A stretch of 26,424 bases of DNA from Myxococcales bacterium. GTDB lineage: Bacteria; Myxococcota_A; Polyangia; Haliangiales; Haliangiaceae. Shown here in pieces: positions 1-18,915 of this stretch. Numbering within the stretch: the stretch's first letter is position 1; every line of letters begins with the position of its first letter. Location of the stretch: contig CANKMW010000015.1 of assembly GCA_947483555.1 (NCBI GenBank), positions 1 to 26,424 of the forward strand. Direction: 5' to 3'. The notes below the pieces were generated by a model, which worked only from the letters and a program-made list of their open reading frames with translations, ran no database searches and had not been told where the DNA came from. The position numbers and the translations under genes were made by a program.

Positions 1-135
1 CTGCTTAACCAGGGGCTCGACTGGTACAGCGCGATCCCAAACATGAAGCCGGAGCGCCTCGAGCTGCTGATGGCGACGTTCGATGCCGGCGTCCGCCGTC
101 ACGCGGTCTTCCGCGAAATCTTCGGCGTCATATGA
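1..135 (+). CDS. 3' end of an upstream gene running off the window edge. Frame 1 is open from position 1 to a TGA at 133-135 and reads ...LLNQGLDWYSAIPNMKPERLELLMATFDAGVRRHAVFREIFGVI*. Product unknown.
   Basis: Open frame from the window start with high GC3 codon usage typical of the neighbouring genes. No recognisable motif. It overlaps the annotated start of the cytochrome ORF in another frame. Confidence 0.4.
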   Translation: MLNQGLDWYSAIPNMKPERLELLMATFDAGVRRHAVFREIFGVI

Positions 136-2077
136 GGGGATGCCTCAGCTGCAGGGCAAGCACGGCGTGACGCCGTGCGCGAAGTGCCACACCCAGGCCA
201 ACCGGCAGGGCCTGCGCACGTTCCTGGGCGCCGAGCGCACCTGCGGCGGCTGTCACGACGATCACCCGCACGGCCGGCTGCGGTCGGCGCTGACGCGCTG
301 CGATCGCTGCCACACCGAGACCGTGTGGTCACCGCAGAAGCCCACCAAGGACTTCGATCACGACGCCAAGGGCGACGCCGCGATGGCGCTCGAAGGCAGT
401 CATGCCGACGTCGCGTGCAGCAAGTGCCATCCCAAGGCGGCGTTCAAGCTGGCCGGCTTCGATGGTCAGTGCGGGACGTGCCACGACAGCCCGCACGACG
501 GTCAGCTGTTCGGCACCAAGAAGTGCACGAGCTGCCACTCGCCGCGCCTCGGCTCGCTCGACGCGATCCAGTTCGACCACAAGAAGCAGGCCGGCTACCC
601 GCTGCTCGGCGAGCACGCTCGGCTGCCATGCGCGACGTGCCACACCCCGGCGCTCGGCAAGCGCGAGCCCACCGGCCGCTGCGAGGCCTGTCACGCCGAC
701 GACAACAAGCACGGCCCGCGCTTCGCGGCGTTCGGTGACCCGCCGCTGTGCACCACGTGTCACTCGCAGCGGGGCTGGAAGAGCGGCTTCCAGTTCAACC
801 ACGAGACCGGCGCCGGGTTCGAGCTGACCGGCAAGCACGCCGCGGTCGGCTGCCGGGCCTGCCATCGCGGCGCACGAGCGTCGGAGTTCGAGCGCTTCGA
901 CGTGAAGAAGAACGGCTGCATGAGCTGCCACCAGCACCAGCGTGCGCACGGCGGCAAGTTCACCAACGACCGCTGTCTGACCTGCCACAACGAGGCGGGC
1001 AGCAAGCGCATGCGCAGCGAGTCCCTCGAGCTGTTCCACGGCCAGGGTTCGAAGTTCCCGCTCGCCAACGCCCACGCCAAGGTCGACTGCCAGCTGTGCC
1101 ACGTCAACGACGTCTATGCCGAGACGCCTCGCGAGTGCGGGGTGTCGTGCCACGAGGACTCGCTGCACCGCGGCAGCCTGGGACCGGAGTGCTCGCGCTG
1201 CCACGAGCCGGGACAGTGGCCCGCGGTGCGCTTCGATCACGGCGCCGACACCGACTGGCGACTGGCTGGCAAGCACGCCGCGATCAAGACCTGCGACGGC
1301 TGTCACCCGAACCGGATCTACGACGGCACGCCGCGAACCTGCGGCGCGTCGGGTTGTCACCAGCGCGACGACGTCCACGCCGGCCAGCTCGGGACCCGGT
1401 GCGATACGTGTCACCGCGACGACGGCGGCCTGTTGTTCCGGCACAACCGCGACGCCCGCTTCAAGATCGACGGCGGTCACGTGGGCGTGGCGTGCGCGAG
1501 CTGTCACGCGACCCGGACCTTCAAGCCGACCCGTCGCGACTGCGTCGGCTGCCACGCCGAGCCCGCGGTGCACGCCGGCCGCTACGGCACCGCGTGCGAG
1601 CGCTGCCACTCGACCACCCGCTTCACCGACGTCTCGGCGTTGCACGACGTCGGTGACTTCTCGCTGACCGGCGCCCACGATCGGGTCGCGTGTCGCGAGT
1701 GCCACCAGCGCGGCGAGCAGCGGCGGGGCTCCGGCAACCTGTGCATCACCTGTCATCGCGACGACGACATCCACCAGAACTCGCTGTCGCCGCGCTGCGG
1801 CGAGTGCCATGGCCAGCGCGCGTTCGCGCCGGCGCGCTTCGATCATCTCGCGGTCGGCTGCAACCTGCTGGGGCAACACCGCACGTTGCCGTGCGCCGAC
1901 TGCCACCGCAGCGGCAACTTCGGCGCCGTCTCGCCGCTGTGCGTGAGTTGCCATCGCGACGACGCGGCCGCGGTCGCCGTCCCCGACCACGGCCCCCTGC
2001 TCGACTGCGGGCGCTGTCACAACCCCGACGTCTGGGTACCGGCCACCGCGCTCGGGGGGCAGAGCATATGTCGTTGA
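83..2077 (+). CDS. Multiheme c-type cytochrome with 27 heme-binding motifs, arranged as nine tandem c7-like triheme domains. Alternative start ATG at 140, directly preceded by GAGGGG.
   Basis: The translation contains 25 CXXCH motifs plus one CX3CH (CGVSCH) and one CX4CH (CGASGCH). They fall in recurring triads with spacings of about 12-13 residues. Each triad is preceded by F-x-H...G-x-H...C-x-x-CH, as in triheme cytochrome c7 (PpcA-like) domains. No N-terminal signal peptide is encoded from either candidate start. Confidence 0.88.
   Translation: MPASAVTRSSAKSSASYEGMPQLQGKHGVTPCAKCHTQANRQGLRTFLGAERTCGGCHDDHPHGRLRSALTRCDRCHTETVWSPQKPTKDFDHDAKGDAAMALEGSHADVACSKCHPKAAFKLAGFDGQCGTCHDSPHDGQLFGTKKCTSCHSPRLGSLDAIQFDHKKQAGYPLLGEHARLPCATCHTPALGKREPTGRCEACHADDNKHGPRFAAFGDPPLCTTCHSQRGWKSGFQFNHETGAGFELTGKHAAVGCRACHRGARASEFERFDVKKNGCMSCHQHQRAHGGKFTNDRCLTCHNEAGSKRMRSESLELFHGQGSKFPLANAHAKVDCQLCHVNDVYAETPRECGVSCHEDSLHRGSLGPECSRCHEPGQWPAVRFDHGADTDWRLAGKHAAIKTCDGCHPNRIYDGTPRTCGASGCHQRDDVHAGQLGTRCDTCHRDDGGLLFRHNRDARFKIDGGHVGVACASCHATRTFKPTRRDCVGCHAEPAVHAGRYGTACERCHSTTRFTDVSALHDVGDFSLTGAHDRVACRECHQRGEQRRGSGNLCITCHRDDDIHQNSLSPRCGECHGQRAFAPARFDHLAVGCNLLGQHRTLPCADCHRSGNFGAVSPLCVSCHRDDAAAVAVPDHGPLLDCGRCHNPDVWVPATALGGQSICR
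170..2050 (+). repeat. Nine tandem ~210-bp coding repeats, one triheme c7-like domain each, inside the cytochrome gene. Boundaries approximate.
   Basis: Periodic recurrence in the protein of (F/L)xH...~20...CxxCH...~12...CxxCH...~13...CxxCH modules. Divergent at DNA level but clearly modular. Confidence 0.55.
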
Positions 2078-3714
2078 GGGCCCGCCGGCCGTGGATGGCC
2101 GTGGTGGTGGTGACGACGATCGCGGCGTGGCCGTCGGCGGCACGGGCGCAGTTCGTCGATCGAACCGTGGTGGTCGACGACGACGGTGGTGACGGCGACG
2201 CCACGACCTCGGCCGCGGCCGACCCCACCGCGTCGCCGCCGGCCGGCGATCAGGCCCACGACCTCGAGGTTCGCCTGACCCTGTCGAGCTTCGTGCACCG
2301 CGAGCTCGGGTCCGACGGCCCGCCGCTGGTCGCGGGTGGTGACGCGCCCGATGACGCCAGTCCGGTGCGGCGGTTCTTCGGTGACGCGCGGCTCGAGCTC
2401 CGCGCCGACCGGGTCGGCGGCGGCAGCCTGCGCTTCGATGGTCGCATCCGCGAGACCACCAGCGAGCGCTACCAGGCCGGCGCCGGCGCCGGCGCCGAGT
2501 ACGAGCTGCGCGCTGCGTTCTACCGGCGCGCGCTGGGCGGCAGCGAGCTGCGGGTCGGGCGGCTGGTGGTCGACGCGGTCGGAGCGACCCGGCTCGACGG
2601 CGTCGCCGTCGAGCGGCGGCTGGCGGCGGCGTGGTCCGCGACGCTGTTCGGCGGCGCGTATCCGCAGCGCGGCTCGCGCTCGATCACCACCGACTACGCG
2701 GCGATCCGGGAAGCGGGCGCGGCCACCGGCGCGCCGCTGGTGCCGATCGTCGGTGGCGGCGGGCTGTCGTACCGTCGGCCGTCGCTGTACGGCGACCTCG
2801 GCGTGGGCGGCATCCACGTGCTCCAGGACGTGCCCGGTGCCGCCGGCGTCGCCGCCAGCCGCGTGTTCACGAGCGCGAGCGGTTACTGGCGGCCGGCGCC
2901 GTGGATCGACGCCTACCACTACGGCGTGCTCGAGGTCGCCGGCGCCGGCGACGTGCGCTTGACCAATGGCAGCCTCGGCGTCGACGGCTTCCCGGTGCCG
3001 GCGCTGAAGCTGGCCCTGACCGCCCATCACGTCGACACCGAGTTGCTCGAGATCAGCGCCCGCAACGTGCTCGAAGATCCGGACCCGGCGGCGATGGGCG
3101 TGGTGCAGAACGACGCCGCCGTGGTGCGGGTGTCGCAGGACCTGGCCCGGGCCGGCGTCAGCCTCGCGCTCGCGCAAGCCCGGTTCGAGCTGTCGGCCAG
3201 CGGCGGCCTGCACCGCCGTCCGGCCATCGACGTGCCACTCGCCGACGGCGGCGTGGTGGCGTTCCCGGCCGCGTCGATGGCCGAGGCCACGCTGGCGGTG
3301 CTCGACCGCCGTTCGTTCGCCGGCCTGCGGGTGGCGCTGTCGGGGAGCGCGCTGGGGCCGATCGGCGACCAGGCGCCGAGCCGGTCACGCGGCGTGGCGG
3401 CGCGGCTGGTCGTGAGTCGTGCCGGTGAGCGCGGTGATGTCGAGCTCGACCTCGTGGCCCAGCGGTTCTCCGACCTCGGGCCGCGGACCGGCTGCACGAC
3501 GCTCGATCCGCTGGCCTGTCACGGCACCGCCCGCAGCACCGCGGCGCAGGTCGGCGGGCTGCTCACCCTGCGCGCCGGGTCCGAGTGGTTGCTGCTGATC
3601 GACGGTCACCTCGGGGTCCGCGACGCCGAGTCGTCGACCGTCGGCGCGATGGTCGAGTGGCCGCGCGTGGTTTCGGTGAGCGGCTTCGCGAGACTTTCGT
3701 GGCGCTATCGGTGA
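2068..3714 (+). CDS. Secreted hypothetical protein of 548 aa with a cleavable signal peptide and pervasive amphipathic beta-strand periodicity. Putative outer-membrane beta-barrel (porin-like).
   Basis: ATG at 2068 overlaps the cytochrome stop (2075-2077). N-terminus MSLRARRPWMAVVVVTTIAAWPSAARA|QF is a classic Sec signal with an AxA site. The mature protein is rich in alternating hydrophobic/polar segments (EVRLTLSSFV, ELRAAFYRRAL, RLVVDAVGATRLDGVAVERRL, GLLTLRAGSEWLLLIDGHLGV) with many Gly/Tyr/Trp. The C-terminus ...VSVSGFARLSWRYR has alternating aromatics. The track ORF 1690-2067 upstream in the same frame overlaps the cytochrome gene and is not coding. Confidence 0.72.
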   Translation: MSLRARRPWMAVVVVTTIAAWPSAARAQFVDRTVVVDDDGGDGDATTSAAADPTASPPAGDQAHDLEVRLTLSSFVHRELGSDGPPLVAGGDAPDDASPVRRFFGDARLELRADRVGGGSLRFDGRIRETTSERYQAGAGAGAEYELRAAFYRRALGGSELRVGRLVVDAVGATRLDGVAVERRLAAAWSATLFGGAYPQRGSRSITTDYAAIREAGAATGAPLVPIVGGGGLSYRRPSLYGDLGVGGIHVLQDVPGAAGVAASRVFTSASGYWRPAPWIDAYHYGVLEVAGAGDVRLTNGSLGVDGFPVPALKLALTAHHVDTELLEISARNVLEDPDPAAMGVVQNDAAVVRVSQDLARAGVSLALAQARFELSASGGLHRRPAIDVPLADGGVVAFPAASMAEATLAVLDRRSFAGLRVALSGSALGPIGDQAPSRSRGVAARLVVSRAGERGDVELDLVAQRFSDLGPRTGCTTLDPLACHGTARSTAAQVGGLLTLRAGSEWLLLIDGHLGVRDAESSTVGAMVEWPRVVSVSGFARLSWRYR

Positions 3715-3822
3715 CGGTGTACGCGGGCTGCGCAGCCGTTCCGGGACCTGCACATCGGCGCGGCGCAGGTAGGCGGAACTCCGTGATCGCCGCGCGGCAT
3801 CACGCTTGCTGGAATCTTCCAG

Positions 3823-6800
3823 GTGGCCTGGACGCGCTCTCTCCTGCTCGCGCTGGCCGCGCTCGGGCTGGCGGCGTGCGATCTGGGCTCGTTCGATCCG
3901 AGCGACGGCGGCATCCCGGTCCAGGATCAGACCACCTGCGCCGCCAGCTGTCACGGCTCCGACGGCGTCGCGGCGCCGCCGCGCGATACCTCGGGCGGCA
4001 CCGATCCGGCGACGACCGGCGTCGGTGCGCACCGCGCGCACCTCGAAACCTCGTCGTGGCACAAGCGCCTGGAGTGCAGCACCTGCCATGTGGTGCCCGA
4101 GGAGATCGGTGCGGCCGGACACCTCGACACCGCGTTGCCCGCCGAGCTCACGTTCGGTGGCCTCGGCGAGAACAGCGCCTGGAGCGGCACCTCGTGCACC
4201 AGCTACTGCCACGGCGCCGCGCTCACCGGCGGCGCGACGACCGAGCCGGTGTGGATCCAGAACGCGAGCACGCCGAGCGACTGCGGCTCGTGCCACGGCG
4301 CGCCGCCGCCGGCGCCACACCCGCAGGATGGTGAGTGCGCCACCTGCCACCCGACGATGAACCCGGGCGGCGGCCTCGAGATCGCGTACCCGGAGTTGCA
4401 CATCGATGGCCACCTCGACGTCGTCAACGCCGCCGCCTGCGATAGCTGCCACGGCGCGGCCGGCGATCCGGCGCCACCGCGCGACACCACCGGCGGCACG
4501 GCGACCGCGGCGCGCGGCGTCGGCGCCCACCAGGTCCACCTCGGTAGCTCGTCGTGGCACGCGCAGCTCGATTGCACGCAGTGTCACCGCGTGCCGGCGG
4601 GCATCTCGGATCTCGGCCACATCGACACGCCGCTGCCGGCCGAGATCTCGTTCGGCACGCTGGCCGGGAACGGAACCTGGAACGGCACCTCGTGCGCCGG
4701 CTCGTACTGCCACGGCGCGACCTTGACCGGCGGCAACCGGCGCACGCCGGAGTGGACGCGCGTCGACGGCAGCCAGAGCCAGTGCAGCTCGTGCCACGGC
4801 GCGCCGCCGCCGCCGCCGCACCCGACCAACAACAACTGCGGCACCTGTCACCAGACCATGGCGCCGGGCGGCGGCATGGTGATCGCGTACCCGGCGCTGC
4901 ACATCGACGGCAACGTCGACGTGATCGGCGGCCAGGCCTGCGACGCCTGCCACGGCGCCGCCGGCAACCCGGCGCCGCCGCGCGACACCACCGGTGGCAC
5001 CTCGACCACGCTGCGCACCGTCGGTGCCCACCGCCGCCACCTCGACGCCTCGACGTGGCGCAAGGACCTCGCCTGCGTCGAGTGCCACCGCGTGCCGGGC
5101 GCGACCGCCTCGATCGGCCACCTGGACACGCCGGCGCCCGCCGAGATCACGTTCGGCGCGCTGGCCGGCACCGCGAGCTGGAACGGCAACAGCTGCGCCA
5201 ACACCTACTGCCATGGCGCCACCCTGGCCGGCGGCACGGCGGTGAATCCGGTGTGGACCCAGGTCGACGGCGCGCAGGGGCAGTGCGGCTCGTGTCACGG
5301 CACCCCGCCGCCGCCGCCCCACCCGGTCGACCCCGACTGCGGCGCCTGCCACGCGACGATGACCGCCGGTCTGGGCCTGGTGATCACCGATCCGGCCCGC
5401 CACATCGACGGCAACCTCGACGTCACCGGCGATCAGGCCTGCGATGCGTGCCACGGCTCGGGCGGCGTCGCCGCGCCGCCGCGCGACAACGCCGGCAACA
5501 CCGCGACCACCGCGCGCGGCGTCGGCGCGCACCGCGCCCATCTCGGCGCCGGCGCCTGGTCGGCGACCATCGCCTGCACCGATTGCCATCGCGTCCCCGG
5601 GGCGGTCAGCGCGGTCGGCCACGTCGACACGCCGCTGCCAGCCGAGGTCCGGTTCAGCGCCCGCGCCGGGACCGCGACCCAGTGGAACGGATCGCGCTGC
5701 TCCAACAACTACTGCCACGGCGCCACGCTCGGCGGCGGCACCACCACGGCGCCGATCTGGAACCAGGTCGGCAGCGGCCAGGCGGCGTGCGGATCGTGCC
5801 ACGGCCGGCCGCCGCCGCCGCCGCATCCGGCGCAGGGCGATTGCGGGACGTGTCACGACACCATGACGCCCGGCAACAACACGACGATCACCGCGCCAGC
5901 CCGCCACATCGACGGCAACCTCGACGTCACCACCAACCAGGCCTGCGACGCGTGTCATGGCTCCGGCGGCGTGTCGGCCCCACCCGACGACACCGCCGGC
6001 AACAACAGCACCGCCGCGCGCGGCGTCGGCGCGCACCGGGCGCATCTCGGCACCTCGACGTGGCACCAGCAGGTCACCTGTACGCAGTGTCATCGGGTGC
6101 CGACCGGCGTGACCTCGGTCGGCCACACCGACACGCCGCTGCCCGCCGAGCTCACGTTCAGCGCGCTGGCCGCGGGCACGACCTGGAACGGGACCACCTG
6201 CGGCACCAGCTACTGCCACGGCGCGACGCTGGCCGCCGGTGGCACCGCGACGGCGCCGCTGTGGACGCGGGTCGATGGCACCCAGGCCGCCTGCACCGCC
6301 TGCCACGGCGCGCCACCGCCGCCGCCGCACCCGAACGATAGCAACTGCCAGGGCTGCCACGCCCCGGTCGCCGGGCCGGGCCTGACCATCGCCACCCCGG
6401 CGCTGCACATCGACGGCACGCTGCAGGTGACCAGCATCCACTCGGCGGGTTGGGCGCAGCCGACCCAGCACGGCACCGCGTTCAACGCGCAGGGACCGTC
6501 GAGCTGCGCCACCGCCAGCTGTCACGGCGTCGCGCTCACCGGCGGGGCCTCGAACGTGTCGTGCAACGGTTGCCACACCGGCTGGCAGACCACCTGCGTC
6601 TTCTGCCACGGCGGGACGGACAACGCGACCGGGGCGCCGCCCGAGAGCGTGGCCGGCCTCACCGCCGTCGCCGATCGTCACGTCGGGGGCCACACCGCGC
6701 ACGTCGCCGCCTCGACGACCCACGCCGCCTACGCCTGCAGCGCCTGTCACGTCACGCCGTCGAACGCGCTGAGCGCCGGCCACGTCGACGGCGTCGCCAA

Positions 6801-7197
6801 CGCCGAGGTGCGCTACTCGACGATGAACGCCGCCGCTACCTACAACGTGACCACCGCCGGCTGCGCCACGCTCTACTGCCACGGCAACGGCCGCACCAGC
6901 GGTGGCCTCGCGACCTGGACCTCGACCACCAACCTCGGCTGCGCCTCGTGTCACAACGATGGCGGCAATCCGCAGCTCATGTCCGGCGATCACAAGAAGC
7001 ACATCGCCGACGAGAACATGGCCTGCACCGAGTGCCACCAGACCGTGGTCAACGCCGCCGCGCAGATCATCGCCCCCGCCCTGCACGTCAACGGCCTCAA
7101 GGAAGTGAGGATGGCGGTCGGCGGCACCTGGAACCCGGCCAATCGCTCGTGCTCGGGCCTCCCCGGCGGCGCCTGCCACGGCACCAAGACCTGGTGA
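3823..7197 (+). CDS. Giant multiheme c-type cytochrome lipoprotein of 1124 aa with ~32 heme motifs. Five tandem ~167-aa modules carry paired CX4CH...CXXCH motifs of the Geobacter type (TIGR01904-like), followed by a distinct C-terminal domain with ~7 hemes.
   Basis: GTG start. The lipoprotein signal MAWTRSLLLALAALGLAAC has the lipobox L-A-A-C. Each module repeats CxxCH, CxxCH, CX4CH (CAGSYCH, CANTYCH, CSNNYCH, CGTSYCH; CX3CH CTSYCH in module 1), CxxCH, PPPPPHP, CxxCH. The C-terminal part adds CATASCH, CNGCH, CVFCH, CSACH, CATLYCH, CASCH and CTECH. The opposite-strand ORF 3385-7977 is Ala/Gly/Arg-rich junk. Confidence 0.9.
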   Translation: MAWTRSLLLALAALGLAACDLGSFDPSDGGIPVQDQTTCAASCHGSDGVAAPPRDTSGGTDPATTGVGAHRAHLETSSWHKRLECSTCHVVPEEIGAAGHLDTALPAELTFGGLGENSAWSGTSCTSYCHGAALTGGATTEPVWIQNASTPSDCGSCHGAPPPAPHPQDGECATCHPTMNPGGGLEIAYPELHIDGHLDVVNAAACDSCHGAAGDPAPPRDTTGGTATAARGVGAHQVHLGSSSWHAQLDCTQCHRVPAGISDLGHIDTPLPAEISFGTLAGNGTWNGTSCAGSYCHGATLTGGNRRTPEWTRVDGSQSQCSSCHGAPPPPPHPTNNNCGTCHQTMAPGGGMVIAYPALHIDGNVDVIGGQACDACHGAAGNPAPPRDTTGGTSTTLRTVGAHRRHLDASTWRKDLACVECHRVPGATASIGHLDTPAPAEITFGALAGTASWNGNSCANTYCHGATLAGGTAVNPVWTQVDGAQGQCGSCHGTPPPPPHPVDPDCGACHATMTAGLGLVITDPARHIDGNLDVTGDQACDACHGSGGVAAPPRDNAGNTATTARGVGAHRAHLGAGAWSATIACTDCHRVPGAVSAVGHVDTPLPAEVRFSARAGTATQWNGSRCSNNYCHGATLGGGTTTAPIWNQVGSGQAACGSCHGRPPPPPHPAQGDCGTCHDTMTPGNNTTITAPARHIDGNLDVTTNQACDACHGSGGVSAPPDDTAGNNSTAARGVGAHRAHLGTSTWHQQVTCTQCHRVPTGVTSVGHTDTPLPAELTFSALAAGTTWNGTTCGTSYCHGATLAAGGTATAPLWTRVDGTQAACTACHGAPPPPPHPNDSNCQGCHAPVAGPGLTIATPALHIDGTLQVTSIHSAGWAQPTQHGTAFNAQGPSSCATASCHGVALTGGASNVSCNGCHTGWQTTCVFCHGGTDNATGAPPESVAGLTAVADRHVGGHTAHVAASTTHAAYACSACHVTPSNALSAGHVDGVANAEVRYSTMNAAATYNVTTAGCATLYCHGNGRTSGGLATWTSTTNLGCASCHNDGGNPQLMSGDHKKHIADENMACTECHQTVVNAAAQIIAPALHVNGLKEVRMAVGGTWNPANRSCSGLPGGACHGTKTW
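3937..6432 (+). repeat. Five direct tandem repeats of ~501 bp (167 codons) inside the lipoprotein cytochrome gene. Each encodes a 5-heme module.
   Basis: Module starts at the conserved motif CD(A/S)CHG fall at aa 39, 206, 373, 540 and 708. That is a period of 167-168 aa, about 501 bp. Protein-level identity between units is high, so substantial DNA-level identity is expected. Confidence 0.8.
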
Positions 7198-10227: not shown

Positions 10228-10974
10228 TCACGCCACTGTCGCCCATTTCGCGTCGAGCCACGCTCGCAGCGCGACCAGATCCTCCGCCAGCGGCGCCTCG
10301 ACCACCAGCCTCCGCCCGTCCGGACGCGTCACCTCGAGGCCAGCGGCGTGCAGCGCCAGGCGCGCGCCCGGCGCGCCGTCGAGCATGCCGCGCAGCGTGC
10401 GCTTGCCGTACAGCGGATCGAACAGGATCGGGGCCTCGAGGCTGCGCAGGTGGACGCGGATCTGATGATGACGGCCGGTCAACGGGCGGGCCTCGAGCAG
10501 CGTGACGGTGTCGAGATCGACGATCCCTGGACTCGGCCCCGGCGCGGTCTCGCCCGGCACCGGGGCGCGCGACCACCGCGCCAGCGCGGTCATCTCGGTG
10601 ACCGACGGCTTGCCGCGCTCGCCGGCCACCGCCGGTCGGGCCTTTCCGCGCCGCGCCTCGACCACCGCGACCTCGACGGTCCGCTCGCCGGGCAGGTCGC
10701 CGGCCGCGAAGGCCAGGTAGCGCTTGTGCACGCGGCGGGCCGCGAAGGCATCGTTCAGCCAGCGGTGGGCGGCGGCCGACCGGGCCATCACCACCACCCC
10801 GGAGGTGTCCTTGTCGATGCGGTGCACCACCCACAGCGGCTCGCCGCGCGCGGCCTCGAGCCGGTGGCGCAGGGAGGTCGCCGGGTCGCCGTCGCGCTCC
10901 GGAATGACGGCGAGGCCGGCGGGCTTGGCCACCGCGATCAGCTCGTCGTCTTCGAACAGCAGCGGCGCGTTCAT
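10228..10974 (-). CDS. RluA-family pseudouridine synthase. A GTG at 11013 is an alternative start.
   Basis: Contains the catalytic signature HRIDKDTSG and the LTGRHHQIRVHL motif typical of RluA/TruC-family enzymes. The N-terminus MNAPLLFEDDELIAVAKPAGL matches the family's start. GGATAAG lies upstream of the ATG. Confidence 0.85.
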   Translation of the reverse strand: MNAPLLFEDDELIAVAKPAGLAVIPERDGDPATSLRHRLEAARGEPLWVVHRIDKDTSGVVVMARSAAAHRWLNDAFAARRVHKRYLAFAAGDLPGERTVEVAVVEARRGKARPAVAGERGKPSVTEMTALARWSRAPVPGETAPGPSPGIVDLDTVTLLEARPLTGRHHQIRVHLRSLEAPILFDPLYGKRTLRGMLDGAPGARLALHAAGLEVTRPDGRRLVVEAPLAEDLVALRAWLDAKWATVA

Positions 10975-11148
10975 GTCGCACTTATCCCACCCCGGCGCGG
11001 CGCGCGGAAGCACTCGCGTTTTGCCCCGTGCCGCGTCGCGACCGGTGCGTCGCGGGTGTTAGGATGCGATCGCATTCGGCCGGGGCATGTGCCCGCGCTC
11101 GTACCTCGAAGGGGAGGTGCCGCGGCGGGCGCGGCCCCACGAGGGATC

Positions 11149-14100
11149 ATGGCCACCAGCGACTTCGAAACCGCCGCTGCCACCGTCAAGAGTGCGCCGC
11201 ACTCGACCGCCGCCTGGGACGCGATCGAGGAGCTCGCGCGCGAGCACGAGAAACCCGACCACGTGGTCGCCCTCTACCGCGACGTGTTGCAGAAGGGCCT
11301 CGACCCGCAAGTCGTCGAGATGGTCGGCGAACGCGCCGGCGCATTCTGCGACGAATGGTTCGGCGACGACCCCAAGGTCGCCGAGGGCCTGCTGTCCAAG
11401 GTGCTCGAGCTGGCGCCGCAGTCGGAGTCGGCGCTCGGTCGCATGTCGGTGCTCCTGACCCAGAACGAGCGCTGGAACGATCTGCTCCGCCTCTACGACC
11501 GCGCGCTGACCGGCGTCAAGGACCCCGGCCGCCGCATCAAGCTGCTGCGCGAGGCGTCGCAGCTGGCCAAGGACGTCGCCAATCAACCCGAGCAGGCGAT
11601 CGCCTACCTGCAACGCCTGCTGCCGCTGACTCCGGACGACGCTCAGCTCGGACAGTCGCTCGAGCGGCTCCTCGAGCGCTACGAGCGCTGGGTCGATCTG
11701 ATCGCGCTGTGGGAGAGCCGCCTGGAGCGGCAGAGCAAGGCCGAGCGCGAGAAGAGCCGGGCCCGCATCGCGGCGTGCTGGCTCGACAACTTGCAGGACT
11801 CGGCCAAGGCGCTGGCCTCGGTGCGTCCGCTGCTGGCCGAGTCGGACGACGACAAGGAGGCGTGCACGCTGCTCGAGCGCATCATCGAGGCCGGCCACAC
11901 GCCAGCCAAGGAGCGCGAGGCGGCGCTCGACATCCTGCGCGCCCACTACGACGCGACCGCCCGGCCGCGCGAGGTGATCCGGGTCCTCGAGCGCGTGATC
12001 GAGCGCGATCCGGCGGGCAGCCAGGCGCTGCGCGAGGAGGCCGGCGCCCGGCTGGCCGAGCTCGACGACGACAGCGCGGCGATGGACCACTATGCCGCCT
12101 TGCTCGCCCTGACCCCCGACTCGTCGGTGACCCAGGAGAAGTTGCGGCAGCTGGCGCAGCGCTCGAACGGGTATGCGCGCTACGCGGCCGGGGTGGCCAC
12201 CGCCGCCGAGCACGCCATCATGCCGGCGCGCAAGGTCGAGCTGCTGTCCGAAGCCGCCCGCACCCGCCTCGATCTGCTCGACGATCCGGCGGGCGCCATC
12301 GAGCTGTACCAGCGCGCGCTCGAGCTGCCCGGTGCGGGCGAGAAGGAGCAACTGCACGTCTGCCGGCGGCTGTCGGAGCTGTACTCGCGGGTCGATCGAC
12401 CCCGCGAACGCTTCTCGATCCTCGAGCGGCTGGCGGCCCTCGAGCCGTCGGCGTCCACGCGCCGCGGCGTGATCGGCGAGGCCGCCCGCCTGGCCGAGAG
12501 CCTCGGCGAGACCGACAAGGCGCTCGGCCTGTGGCGGCAGCGCATCGATCGCGATCCCGACGACCTCGGCGCCCTCGACTCCGCCATCCTCCTGCTCGAG
12601 ACCTCGGCCCGCTGGACCGAGCTGGTGACGGCGCTCGACCAGCGCGCCGGCAAGAACGTGTCGGCGGCCCAGAAGCGCGCCGACCTCACGCGCATCGCGG
12701 TCGTGTTCCGCGATCCCGTCCGCGACGTGGAGCGCGCCATCGCCGCCTGGCAGCGGGTGCAGACCGAGTTCGGCGACGACGCCGAGACCGTCGGCGCGCT
12801 CACCGACCTGCTGGCCGAGGTGTCGCGCTGGCGCGAGCTCGCCGATCTGCTCGAGCGCACCAGCGGTCGCGATGTCGCCCGCACCACGCATCGCCTCAAC
12901 CGCCTGGGCGAAGCGCTGGCCACCCATCTCGGTGAGCCGGCCCGCGCCCTGGCCGCCTTTCGCGCCGCGCTGGCGATCGATCCGGTCAACGATCAGGCTC
13001 GGGCCGGACTGCTGACGCTGCTCGAGGTCGCCGCGTTTCGTAAGCCCGCCGCCGACGCGCTGGCGACCAGCTATCGCGAGAACCAGGACTGGGCCGGGTT
13101 CCTCAAGCTGTTGCCGGCTCGGCTCGCCGATGCCCCCGACGATCGGACGCGGCTCGCCCTCATGCGCGAGGCGGCCTACATCCAGAGCAACAACACCAAC
13201 GATCCGGCCGGCGCGCTGAACAGCCTGGCGATGGCGTTTCCGCTCGCGCCCCGCGATGGCGTGATGGAGGGCCAGATCCTCGACCTGGCCGCTCGCACCG
13301 GCAACCCCGGCGCGGCGGCGGCGTCGAGCGCCCTCGAGGCGGCGATCCGTGCGCTCGCCGACGATCCCGACGAGGCCGCGCGCATGCGCCTGGTGCGCGC
13401 CGCCTTGCTCGAGGACAGCCTGGGCGACGAAGCCGCCGCGCTCGACGAGTACGTGACCGTGTTCCGGCACGACCGCGGCAACCAGCTCGCGGCCACCGCG
13501 GTGGTCCGGCTGGCGCCCCGGCGCGGCAAGTGGGCCGACGCCGCCGCCGCGTTGCTCGGCTACGCGGCCGCCAAGGAGCGCCTCGACGAGGGGCTGTACG
13601 CCAGCTACGAGCAGGCCGGGGCCGCGGATGCCGGCGCGATCGACGCGTCGGCCGCGGCGCTCGAGCAGGTCGCGGACGCCAGCGGCCTGCCGCCGGCGGT
13701 GGCGGCGCTGGTGTGGTCGCGGATCGCGATGTGGCACCGCGGCCGGCGTGATGATGGGCGCGCCGCGGTCGCCGCGTTCCGCCGCTCGCTCGCCGCCGGC
13801 GGCGATCGAGCCGACACGTTGCGCGCGGTGGCCGAGCTGGTGCGTCCGGACGGGCCGAGCGCGGCCTTGCTCGACGTGCTGCGCCGGCTGTCCGATGCCG
13901 ATCCCCGCGATCTCGACGTGCTGGTCGAGGCCGCCGACACCGCCAGCCGGCTCGGAGACCGCGAGGCCTCGGTCACCATCCTCGGCCAGGTGCTGGGCCG
14001 GGCCACCGGCGCGTGGCGCGGCTCGGCGGCCGTGCAGTCGTCACGTCCCGCCGAGGCGGTGGTGCGCTGGGCCATCGACGGCCTGGTCGAGCTGCATCGG

Positions 14101-17100
14101 GTCGCCGGCCGGCCGCGGGTCGCGCTCGATCTGCTCACCGAGTCGGCGCGCCTGCCGTTCGACGTCGCCACCCGCCGTGATCTGCGGCTGCGCGCGGCGG
14201 CGATGGCGTCCGGAGACCTGCGCGACAACGGCGCGGCGATCGACATGTATCGCGGCGTGCTCGCCGAGAGCCCCGGCGATCTCGAGATCATCGGTCGGCT
14301 GGGCGCGCTGCTCGACGTCGAGCGTCGCCACGCCGAGCTGCTCGGCCTGCGCCACGTCCAGCTCGGGCTCGAGGTCGAGCCGGCCAGCCGCCTCGACCTG
14401 CGTCTCGACATCGCGCGGCTGGTCGGGGTCGTCGAGGAGACCGGCGGTCGCTACGAGGCCCTGATCGCCAACCTCGCCGATCAACCCGGTCACGACGCAT
14501 CGATCGATGCCGCCCACAGCTTCCTGGCCGGCAAGGGCCAGCACAAGGCGCTCGCCGACCTGCTCGAGGAGCAGTCCGGCAAGCTCGAGGCCGGCGGCGA
14601 TGTCGCCAAGGCCGCGCGCCTGTGGGCCCGCTTCGCCGTGGTCGCCGAGCGCGACTCGCGCGAGATCGATCGCGCGATCGCCGGCCATCGCCGGGTCGTC
14701 ACCCTGGCGCCGACCCAGGAGTCGTTCCGGGCCCTGGCCCGGTTGCAGCTCGATCGCGGTCAGCCGGCGGCGGCGGTGCCGTGGTTCGAGAGCCTGCTGG
14801 CCACGGTGACGGGCGCCGAGCGGCAGACGATCGTCGATCAGCTCGCCCGCGCCCACATCGCGGCCAAGCAGGACGATCGGGCCATCGCCGCGATCGAGAG
14901 CGCGCTCGACGACCGCGAGCCGGCGCTCGAGCTGCGGCTCTTGCTCGCCGAGCTGTACCGCAAGGCCGAGCAGTGGGAGCCGCTGGCTCGCCACCTCACC
15001 CGCTCGCTGTCGTGGTTCGGCGACGACAAGGGGCCCGAGCTGGCCCGCGAGGCCGCCGCGATCTACACCGACAAGCTCGGTGCGCCGGCCAAGGCCATCC
15101 CGGCGCTCGAGAAGGCGCTGGCGCTGGATCCGACCGACAAGGACATGCGAGCCCAACTCGCCGTCGGGCTGCGCGCCGCCGGCCGGCTGGTCGAAGCCCG
15201 CGCCATCCTCGCCGAGCTGATCGAGGGCTTCGGTCGCCGCCGCTCGCCGGAGCGGGCCCAGCTCCACGTCGAGCTGGCCAAGGTCGCCCATGCCGAAGGC
15301 AAGGTCGACGAGGCGCTGACCGAGATGGAGGCGGCGTCCAAGATGGACGTCAACAACGCGCGCGTCCAGCGCGAGCTCGCCGAGCTGTGTCGCGCCGCCG
15401 GACAGGTCGACAAGGCGGAGCGCACCTACCGGGCCCTGCTCCTCATCGTCCGCCGCCAGCCGCCCGGCGACGACGAGGCCGCCGTCGGTCAGAGCGAGGT
15501 GCTGTTCGAGCTGTCGCGGCTGGCCGGCTCGCATGGCGACGCCACCCAGGCCAAGGAGCTGCTCGAGAGCGCGGTCGATGCCGCGGTGCAGTCCGACGTC
15601 GAGGTCCGGCGCCTGCGCCGCAGCCTGATCGCCCACAACGAGGCCGAGACGCTCATGCGCGTGCTCGAGCTGCGCCTCGCGGCCACCAGCGAGGCCGCCA
15701 GCCAGGCCCGGCTGTACGCCGACATGGCCGACGTGCTCGATGGCTCGCTCGCGCGCTCGGCCGATGCGCTCGATGCGATCATCAAGGCCATCAACCACGC
15801 CCCGTGGCGGCTCGACCTGCACGACAAGGCCTGGCTCCTGGCCCGCAAGTCGGGCGAGACCAAGAAGCTGGTCGAGGCGGTCGAGACCGTGGTCGATCGG
15901 CTGCGTCGCAAGGACGATCCACCGCTGGTGGCGTCGCTGTTGCTGCGCGCCGGTGAGGCGCTCGAGAACGATGCCAACGACCTGCCGGCGGCCGCGGCGC
16001 TGTACCGGCGCGTCGAGATGCTCGGCGAACGCCTGGCCGAGGCGTACTACGCCCAGGCCCGAGTCGCCGGCGCGCTCGGCGACGACGAGCAGCAGGCCCG
16101 CGCGCTCGACAACATGCTCAAGCTCGCCAGCAGCGACGGCGGCGACGCCTCGCCGGCGCAGACCGACGCGCTGTACCGGCTGGCGGAGATCTTCATCGCC
16201 ACCCCGGCGCGTCGCGCCCAGGGCATCGATCTGATCGAGCGCGCCTTCGCGGCCGAGCCGCGCTGGGCCCAGGCCGGGCGCGTGCTGCGCGGCGCATCGT
16301 CGACCGATGCCAGCGACGCCCGCGTGATGACGCTCTACGAGCGGGTGGCGCGCAACGGTGGCGACAGCGAGCTGTTGCTCGACTTTCTCGACAAGCGGGC
16401 GCGGCTCGCCGACGCGACCCCGGCCCAGGTCCGCGAGGCGGTCGATCTGGCCGTCGAGATGGCCCACCACGAGCGCGCCGAAGCGCTGCTGGAGCGCGCC
16501 GTCGTGGCGGCTCGCGACTCCGCCGATGGCGTCGGGGGCGCGGTGTGGGCGGTCCTCGCGCTCACCGATCGTCGCCTCGCCGGCGGCGATCTCGCCGCCG
16601 CCCGCGAGCTGGTCTACGAGATCATCGGCGTCGCCGAGCCGGCCGAGATGGATCCGCTGATCGGGCGGGTGGCCGCCCGCGCGGCGCAGGAGCGCGCTGG
16701 CCACGGTCTGGCCGCCGAGATGTACGAGCTGCTCCGCGAGCGCGCACCGGCGGATCGCGCGGTGTGGGAGCCGCTGGTCGCCCTCTACCGCGACATGGGT
16801 GATGGTGACCGGCTGGCGAGCGTGATCTCGTCGACGCTCCCCAACCTCACCGATCCCGGCGAGCGCAACGCCCTGCGCCGTGCCCACGCCGAGTACTTGA
16901 TCGAGTCACTGAAGCGGCCGCACGACGCCGCCGACGTGCTGCGCGACGCGCTGCGCGACGATCCCGACGATCTCGGCGCCGCCGTGCTGCTGGAGAAGAC
17001 GTTGCGCGCGCTCGGTGACGACGACGGGCTGACCGAGTTCTTGTGGGCCCGCTTCGACGACGCCGTCGCTCGCAACAGCCGCGAATCGACGCTCGACGTG

Positions 17101-18915
17101 GCGTCTCGCCTCGGGCCGCTGGTCGAGTCGACGGGCGGCAACGCGGCCAAGGTCTACCGCACGGCGCTCGGCGTCGCTCCCGACGATCGCGAGCTGCTGC
17201 GTCGCGTCGTGGTGTCGCTCACCGCCGACGACGATCCGCGCGAGTCGGCGGCGTTGATGGAGCGGCTGCTGGCGGTCGAGACCCCGGAGCAGGCGCCGGC
17301 GCTGTGCTGGCGTCTGGCCAGCGCCTACGAGGCCGCCGAGGACTGGCCCGGCGTCCAACGCACCCTGGCCGCCGCGCACAAGGCGGCGCCCGACGACGCC
17401 GCGATCCACGACCGCCTCGAGCAGTTCTACCGTGACACCCAGCAATGGGTCGAGCTGGCCCAGTTGATGATCAGCGACGCCGCCCGCACCACCGACGTCG
17501 CGGTCGCGGTCGATCGCCTGCGCGAGGCCGCGGCGGTGTACTCGGGGGTGCTCGGCCAGCCGCTGGCCGCCGCCGAGGCGCTGCGGGCCGCCCGCGCTCG
17601 CCAGCCCGAGACGCCGGCGCTGTCGGCCGAGCTGGCGGCCGCGCTGGCCGCCGGTGGCGATCAACGCGGCGCGGTGACCTCGCTGAGCGACGCGCTGGAG
17701 GGGCCCGATGGTCCCGACAGCGCGCCGGTCAAGGGCACCGCGCGCGTCGACCTCTTGCTGCTGCGGGCCAGCCTGCGCCAGCAACTCGGCGACGAGGACG
17801 CGGCGGTCATCGATCTCGACGACGCCTACCAGCTCGATCGCGGCCGGGCCGCCGCCGCGCTGGGCGACGGCCTCGAGCGCATGCGGGGGCGGGCCGAAGC
17901 GGCCGGCGACATGAGCAGCGAACGCACCGCGACCCTGCGGCTGGCCCAGCTGCTCACCGAGCACGGCGAGGTCGAGCGCGCACGGGATCTGCTGGTCGGG
18001 TGGATCGAGCGCATGCCCAGCGACCCCGATCCGCTCTATCTGCTGCGCGACATGGACGCCGGCATCGAGCACTGGGACGGCGTCATCGCCGCGTGCACCC
18101 GCCTGGCCTACATCGTCGAGGGCGAGCCGCAGGTGCAGGCGGCGCTCGACGTCACCGATGCGTCGGCGCGCGCCGGCAAGCCGGCCGATGCGATCGCGGT
18201 GCTCGAGATGGTCCACCTGGCCCAGCCCGGCGCCGACGCGATCCGCCTCAAGCTGCGCGAGCAGTACGAGGCGGCCGGCGCCCACCGCGAGCTGGCGGTC
18301 ATCCTGATGGCCGACGCCGACCACGGCACCGACACCCAGGCACGGTTCGCGGCCTACAAGCGGGCCGCCGAGCTGTTCCTGGCCGCCGGCGATGCGTCGG
18401 CGGCGGCGGTCCCGGCCGGCAAGGCCGCCGAGCTGGCGCCCGACGATCACGTCACCGCCATGCTGCTGGTCGACGTGTTGATCGGCTCCGGCCGCACCGA
18501 GGAGGCGGCGACCGCGCTCGAGACCGCGATCGCGGCCCAGAAGAAGCGCACGCCCGAGCTGGCCATGATGCAGCAGCGGATGGGGCGGGTCGCCGGCATG
18601 CTCGGCGACCGTGACGGCCAGCTCGGCTGGCTCAAGAAGGCGTTCGACGTCGATCGCAAGAGCGGCGAGATCGCCGCCGAGCTGGCTCAGCTCGCGACCG
18701 AGATCGGCGACTACGAGCTGGCCCTCAAGCCGTTGCGTGCGATCACGCTGATGGACAATCCGTTGCCGATCACCCGCCCGATGGCGCTGCTCTGGGAAGC
18801 GAAGATCGAGCACGCGCGTGGCAACCGCGCCAAGGCCGAGCTGTGGGCCAAGAAGGCGCTGCGCGAGGATCCGCACTTCTCCGAGGCCCAGCAGTTCCTC
18901 GACGAGCTGCCCTGA
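11149..18915 (+). CDS. Giant cytoplasmic TPR/alpha-solenoid repeat protein of 2588 aa, hypothetical.
   Basis: ATG at 11149 is preceded by GAGGGA. No signal peptide. The whole length is helical-repeat-like (Leu/Ala/Glu/Arg/Asp-rich with recurring A-x-x-x-Y/L...P-D/N hairpin motifs, e.g. [56 protein letters not shown]). The track ORF start at 10348 overlaps the convergent rluA gene and is not real. Three long antisense ORFs inside this gene are Arg/Gly-rich artefacts. Confidence 0.85.

Follow-up and report, generated by a model that had tools for sequence, protein, structure and literature searches.

Introduction

Among insertion sequences (ISs), the IS4 family carries the transposase signature Y-(2)-R-(3)-E-(6)-K (PMC2266710), and its IS10 subgroup, with IS10R of Tn10 as the type element (classification in PMC2266710), is described by lengths of 1200-1350 bp, CT ends, the YREK signature and a 9-bp target duplication (Table 1, PMC2266710). 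The closest known relatives of the element considered here are an IS4-family element on a Rhizobium plasmid (WP_142832625.1, NZ_CP072145.1; 50.5% protein identity) and ISAs18 of Aeromonas (45.7%), with both identities spanning 95-96% of the protein length; the enterobacterial ISEc29-type matches listed are only ~29% identical to its transposase. The Rhizobium element ends in CTCAGGCATCCCCTCA and CTCAGGAATCCCCTCA, and ISAs18 has the same architecture. Like the present element, both have an inverted-repeat core ATCCCCTCA and a stop codon that abuts the right repeat; their C-terminal tails are homologous to that of the present transposase (…IPNM.E.RL…FGII, then the stop), and their 9-bp duplications are GTCCGTAAC and GGTCCGATG. 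They are nevertheless different IS species, with only ~53% nucleotide identity in the 148-nt end examined here.

The other component of the locus belongs with the c7/c3-type multihaem polymers of Kofleriaceae and Haliangium (for example, the 'cytochrome c3 family protein' of Haliangium ochraceum, P0107), which possess a signal peptide. In cytochrome c maturation, Sec export precedes periplasmic haem ligation. The original prediction for the 26,424-nt window analysed here (the whole stretch of DNA, which we call the window throughout) described a 27-haem cytochrome lacking a signal peptide, and offered three readings: a frameshift or sequencing error, an N-terminally truncated or pseudogenised cytochrome, or an unusual export route. 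Mobile-element insertion, the actual cause, was absent from these three. With a probability of about 0.9, we conclude that an IS10-subgroup IS of ~1.28 kb transposed into a ~30-haem cytochrome gene and split it, which explains the missing leader.

Results

At the 5' end of the window, a forward-strand open reading frame (ORF; 83..2077) encodes 664 aa and has candidate ATG starts at 83 and 140. It contains 25 CxxCH motifs together with one CxxxCH and one CxxxxCH motif, in agreement with the original count of 27 haems. TGA codons at 44-46 and 68-70 close the cytochrome frame 5' of ATG83, and another frame (frame 1) runs without a stop from position 1 until the TGA at 133-135, which gives it 53 nt in common with the ORF; each of these coordinates had been given previously and is confirmed. 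Both candidate N-termini had also been called hydrophilic and devoid of a signal peptide, and hydropathy bears this out: within the first 50 residues, Kyte-Doolittle means over 11 residues peak at 0.21 for the ATG83 start and at 0.32 for the ATG140 start, against a median of 2.96 for the same measure in 118 full-length orthologues. Because of this difference, the absence of a signal peptide from the ORF is real and not a chance fluctuation. When the products predicted from ATG83 and ATG140 were looked up as exact sequences, no record was found.

The cytochrome identity of the ORF is clear from Pfam (Cytochrome_C7, E 2.6e-25; Cytochrom_c3_2, E 3.9e-16; and Cytochrom_CIII), and a protein search found over 100 closely related sequences (50-70% identity) in Kofleriaceae, Haliangium and further Myxococcales/Haliangiales metagenome-assembled genomes. 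All but two of these relatives are 757-811 aa long, and the ORF product is ~125 residues shorter at its N-terminus than every full-length orthologue. The additional N-terminal sequence in the orthologues begins with a signal peptide of the classical kind, which has a basic n-region, a hydrophobic core and AxA, and continues with DDFLKSSPGEL..SHA, three CxxCH sites and then FDLMGW..GG..FDH..GW; CxxCH motifs number 28 in the orthologues versus 25 in the window. In protein alignments the window can be aligned with the orthologues only from LQGKH (position 149), corresponding to orthologue residue ~128 onward, where identity to the 757-811-aa orthologues is 65-70%, and DNA similarity to the 80 orthologous loci recovered in a scan of GTDB genomes (the best 69% identical) begins at window position ~147. 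The cytochrome part of the ORF is therefore best described as a 3' fragment of a ~30-haem c7/c3-type gene (149..2077, +; 642 codons plus stop). From residue ~128 to the end, the Kofleriaceae and Haliangium polymers are 53-70% identical to this fragment and match it in haem-motif spacing and downstream neighbours; they differ in keeping the signal peptide and first three CxxCH sites, both of which the window copy lacks through the IS.

These comparisons leave an N-terminally truncated or pseudogenised cytochrome as the only one of the three earlier readings to survive. A genuine leaderless short isoform, exported by a non-classical route, would accommodate the intact 642-codon frame with all of its haem motifs preserved, but we give it almost no credence: classical signal peptides and three additional haems are found in all of the full-length orthologues; the sole available starts lie inside the IS; and the only short matches, P0039 and P0063, are on contigs of 2.7-4 kb. 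An unusual export route is likewise not needed, given the classical signal peptides and three further haem sites of the orthologues.

The DNA that precedes the fragment is the right end of an insertion sequence (1..148, +), recognized by its nucleotide identity to the right ends of other copies. Frame 1 holds the C-terminus of the transposase (1..135, +), that is, its last 44 codons (1..132) and the TGA at 133-135: 41 of the 44 residues of the peptide LLNQGLDWYSAIPNMKPERLELLMATFDAGVRRHAVFREIFGVI, which runs to the stop, are those of the C-terminus of a ~390-aa ORF in metagenome contig L089. The right terminal inverted repeat TGAGGGGATGCCTCAG (133..148) has the transposase stop inside it and is complementary to the left ends of other copies; its reverse complement, CTGAGGCATCCCCTCA, pairs with CTGAGGGATCCCCTC (L088, position 251) and CTGAGTGATCCCCTCA (L089, position 133). 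We take this terminal repeat to resemble IS10 ends. The apparent cytochrome N-terminus MPASAVTRSSAKSSASYEGMPQ (83..148, +) results from reading the IS end out of frame and is not cytochrome sequence; its counterpart in L088, RRSMPACAVTRSFARSSASYEGMPQ, is joined there to unrelated downstream DNA. ATG83 and ATG140 are both within the IS, and the first 22 residues of the 664-aa ORF are IS sequence that is in frame with the cytochrome by chance.

The same evidence bears on the suggestion that frame 1 encodes a signal peptide which a frameshift or sequencing error has cut off from the cytochrome. Frame 1 does stay open over 1..135 and does share sequence with the cytochrome ORF, but it encodes the C-terminus of an IS4-family transposase rather than a signal peptide, no similarity to the orthologue N-terminus is seen in any of the three frames of window 1..146, and what is missing is ~125 residues and not one base; the chance that this explanation is correct is, in our estimate, vanishingly small. 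Pfam and NCBIfam searches with the 44-aa tail by itself returned no more than a sub-threshold match to L33 (E ~0.05-0.09), which is considered spurious because the peptide is the transposase C-terminus.

Protein searches with the frame-1 peptide of 44 residues yielded no matches other than four short gene calls (30-57 aa) from JGI metagenomes. These small ORFs (P0122 at L083:1-93, P0121, P0123 and P0124) are the transposase C-terminus split off by gene callers, and the name 'ribosomal protein L33' that a source gives to one of these looks erroneous. Copies of the element were gathered from the contigs of the four peptide matches and from seven more contigs found with a degenerate DNA pattern. 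Nucleotide identity to window 1..148 is 92-93% for L085, L087 and L089 and 81-84% for L082, L083 and L088, and over the next 24 nt after position 148 identity to the other copies is at chance level. Six copies have sequence in common with the window through ...GATGCCTCAG (window 148) and then continue into different DNA in each case; the shared end, ...TGAGGGGATGCC(T/C)CAG at window 148, has as exceptions L081 and a variant in L086 and L090. At least seven distinct right flanks (those of the window, L082, L083, L085, L087, L088 and L089) follow this end, identifying the repeat as mobile.

Two of these contigs contain full-length copies, of 1279 bp (L088, 251..1529) and 1285 bp (L089, 133..1417); the window copy shows its last 148 nt. 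In both, one uninterrupted ORF of ~390 aa ends in the frame-1 peptide, matches the NCBIfam model NF033591 'IS4 family transposase' (231.5 bits against a cutoff of 152, E 1.4e-68) and Pfam DDE_Tnp_1 (E 3e-13), and carries the YREK signature YGKRFTIEETFRDQK. Both copies are bounded by imperfect inverted repeats that start with CT, and L088 is flanked on both sides by the 9-bp direct repeat CCGGCAGGC. Judged by these sequence features, the element is classed in the IS10 subgroup of the IS4 family because its size, CT ends and YREK signature and the 9-bp duplication of L088 match the corresponding row of Table 1 in PMC2266710; as in that subgroup, a single-ORF DDE transposase of ~390 aa with YREK is combined with a length of ~1.28 kb and CT ends (from L088 and L089) and, in L088, with a 9-bp duplication. 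The hosts are uncultured high-GC bacteria (metagenome contigs without an assigned taxon), and the element appears to be an unnamed IS10-subgroup member of such bacteria.

Some copies are structurally altered. In L086 (reverse strand, oriented ~1751-1770) and L090:408-430, the last ~18 nt of the IS are replaced by unrelated sequence beginning GGAGCGCATCTGCATTTGC..., so that the stop codon and terminal repeat are gone and the transposase frame continues beyond its usual end; the right end in these two contigs may have been truncated or rearranged. In L081, an IS21-like element (154-2706) is nested in an IS4-family copy, the nesting point corresponding to window ~27/28; this element encodes a 490-aa IstA-like protein (rve/Mu-transposase_C) and a 349-aa IstB_IS21 protein and ends in tgtcgttgacg/tgtagttgacg. 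L087, from the same study as L081, begins exactly at the nesting breakpoint. These IstA- and IstB-like genes, which in L081 immediately precede the tail, first suggested an IS21-like identity for the window element. That identity was rejected because the similarity of L081 to the other copies does not start before window ~28, where L088 and L089 have an uninterrupted IS4-type transposase.

The IS end thus defined abuts a cytochrome gene without its first ~128-140 codons. Immediately beyond the junction, the 9 bp CTGCAGGGC (149..157) are the predicted right copy of a target-site duplication, on the model of the 9-bp duplications in L088 and annotated relatives. The window opens inside the element, the remaining ~1.13 kb of which we infer to lie upstream of the window. 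The ends of L083, L085 and L087 are also inside the IS. Assemblers break at multi-copy repeats, and the window edge is plausibly the contig end; more speculatively, the length of 26,424 nt, not being round, hints that the window is an entire contig, and a break 148 nt into the IS is what de Bruijn assemblers with a maximum k of ~141 tend to give.

Such breaks also raise the question of an assembly artefact, either a chimera joined through the repeat or an insertion present in a minority of cells, with the gene intact in most. In its favour are the four sequences (the window, L083, L085 and L087) that terminate inside the IS, as is typical of breaks at multi-copy repeats, and the absence of the exact junction 60-mer from JGI metagenome contigs. 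We nonetheless consider an artefact improbable, as IS sequence gives way to cytochrome sequence precisely at the terminus that six other copies have in common, an outcome that real transposition gives and a random mis-join does not, and as a contig containing the junction requires junction-spanning sequence in the reads.

Transposition of the IS into the ~30-haem gene, our preferred reading, would have split a gene for a periplasmic or extracellular cytochrome at about codon 128-140 of its orthologues, leaving the part with the signal peptide and the first three haem sites either upstream, beyond the IS, or lost. Were this a simple cut-and-paste insertion, the 5' fragment would be expected ~1.3 kb upstream, beyond a left repeat like CTGAG(G/T)GATCCCCTC, with the left target copy ...CTGCAGGGC predicted just before the left end of the IS. 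The fragment that remains in the window has no stops or frameshifts, and it keeps 233 of the 236 residues invariant among eight orthologues, equal to intact orthologues in leave-one-out comparisons; the cytochrome fragment is therefore undecayed, and the insertion is recent or polymorphic in the population.

It is also conceivable that the 5' fragment is no longer across the IS, following an IS-associated adjacent deletion, inversion or recombination between IS copies, with the signal peptide and three haem sites lost from the locus. Multi-copy ISs commonly mediate such events. A search of the rest of the 26 kb window for the missing cytochrome N-terminus gave only weak matches, to internal haem repeats, consistent with such a loss. 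A possible precedent comes from the other copies: the flanks of L089 share no duplication, and the 9-mer to the left of its IS, GCCCCGCGT (oriented 124-132), differs from its own right flank and recurs to the right of the IS in L087 (123-131), from the same study, a pattern that reflects either the flanks of one insertion assembled into different contigs or recombination between IS copies. Even so, an undecayed 3' fragment is no less compatible with a simple insertion that happened very recently, and no feature of the window separates the two; we regard a deletion or rearrangement as unlikely.

Downstream of the fragment, the window preserves the gene neighbourhood of the orthologous loci. A partner gene for a protein of ~480 aa with no Pfam match (2260..3714, +) is directly 3' of the cytochrome orthologue in 77 of the 80 loci (tblastn), and a second large multihaem cytochrome of ~1100 aa (3823..7197, +; Pfam Cytochrome_C7, Cytochrom_c3_2 and GSu_C4xC__C2xCH) is present in 19 loci, 67-68% identical and syntenic in L001 and L009. 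Because the downstream gene order is kept, this is the orthologous locus. Across Kofleriaceae and Haliangiales (window 2260-7197 and L001-L080), the cluster comprises a ~30-haem cytochrome, the ~480-aa protein and, in the 19 loci, the ~1100-aa cytochrome, which has Geobacter-type CxxxxCH...CxxCH motifs; this conserved cytochrome cluster may be an extracellular electron-transfer module. Further along the window, a 2855-aa ORF (10348-18915, +), the only Pfam matches of which are TPR repeats, was not found in the flanks of the orthologous loci.

Discussion

The leaderless reading frame comes from the ordinary disruption of a gene and calls for no unusual route of export. The product of the 3' fragment would probably be a non-functional cytoplasmic apoprotein and the gene inactivated, because without a Sec signal the fragment could not reach the periplasmic haem-attachment machinery. 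Two further consequences can be imagined, namely that the insertion constitutes a population-level on/off polymorphism of a putative extracellular electron-transfer cytochrome cluster in an uncultured relative of Kofleriaceae, or that the IS-borne ATG140, which is preceded by GAGGGG and in frame with the cytochrome, drives production of a leaderless 645-aa apoprotein that has a role in the cytoplasm; nothing beyond the intact reading frame supports either, and we think both very improbable.

The practical value of this analysis is an annotation correction: neither annotation nor modelling should treat the 664-aa 'leaderless 27-haem cytochrome' as a protein, since the IS has disrupted a ~30-haem gene, of which this is the 3' fragment preceded by 22 residues of IS sequence. 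From the result it also follows that an IS10-like element is active in uncultured high-GC bacteria, the window copy having inserted into a Kofleriaceae-type cytochrome gene. For the organism, or part of its population, it means the very recent loss of one of the two large multihaem cytochromes in a conserved cluster.
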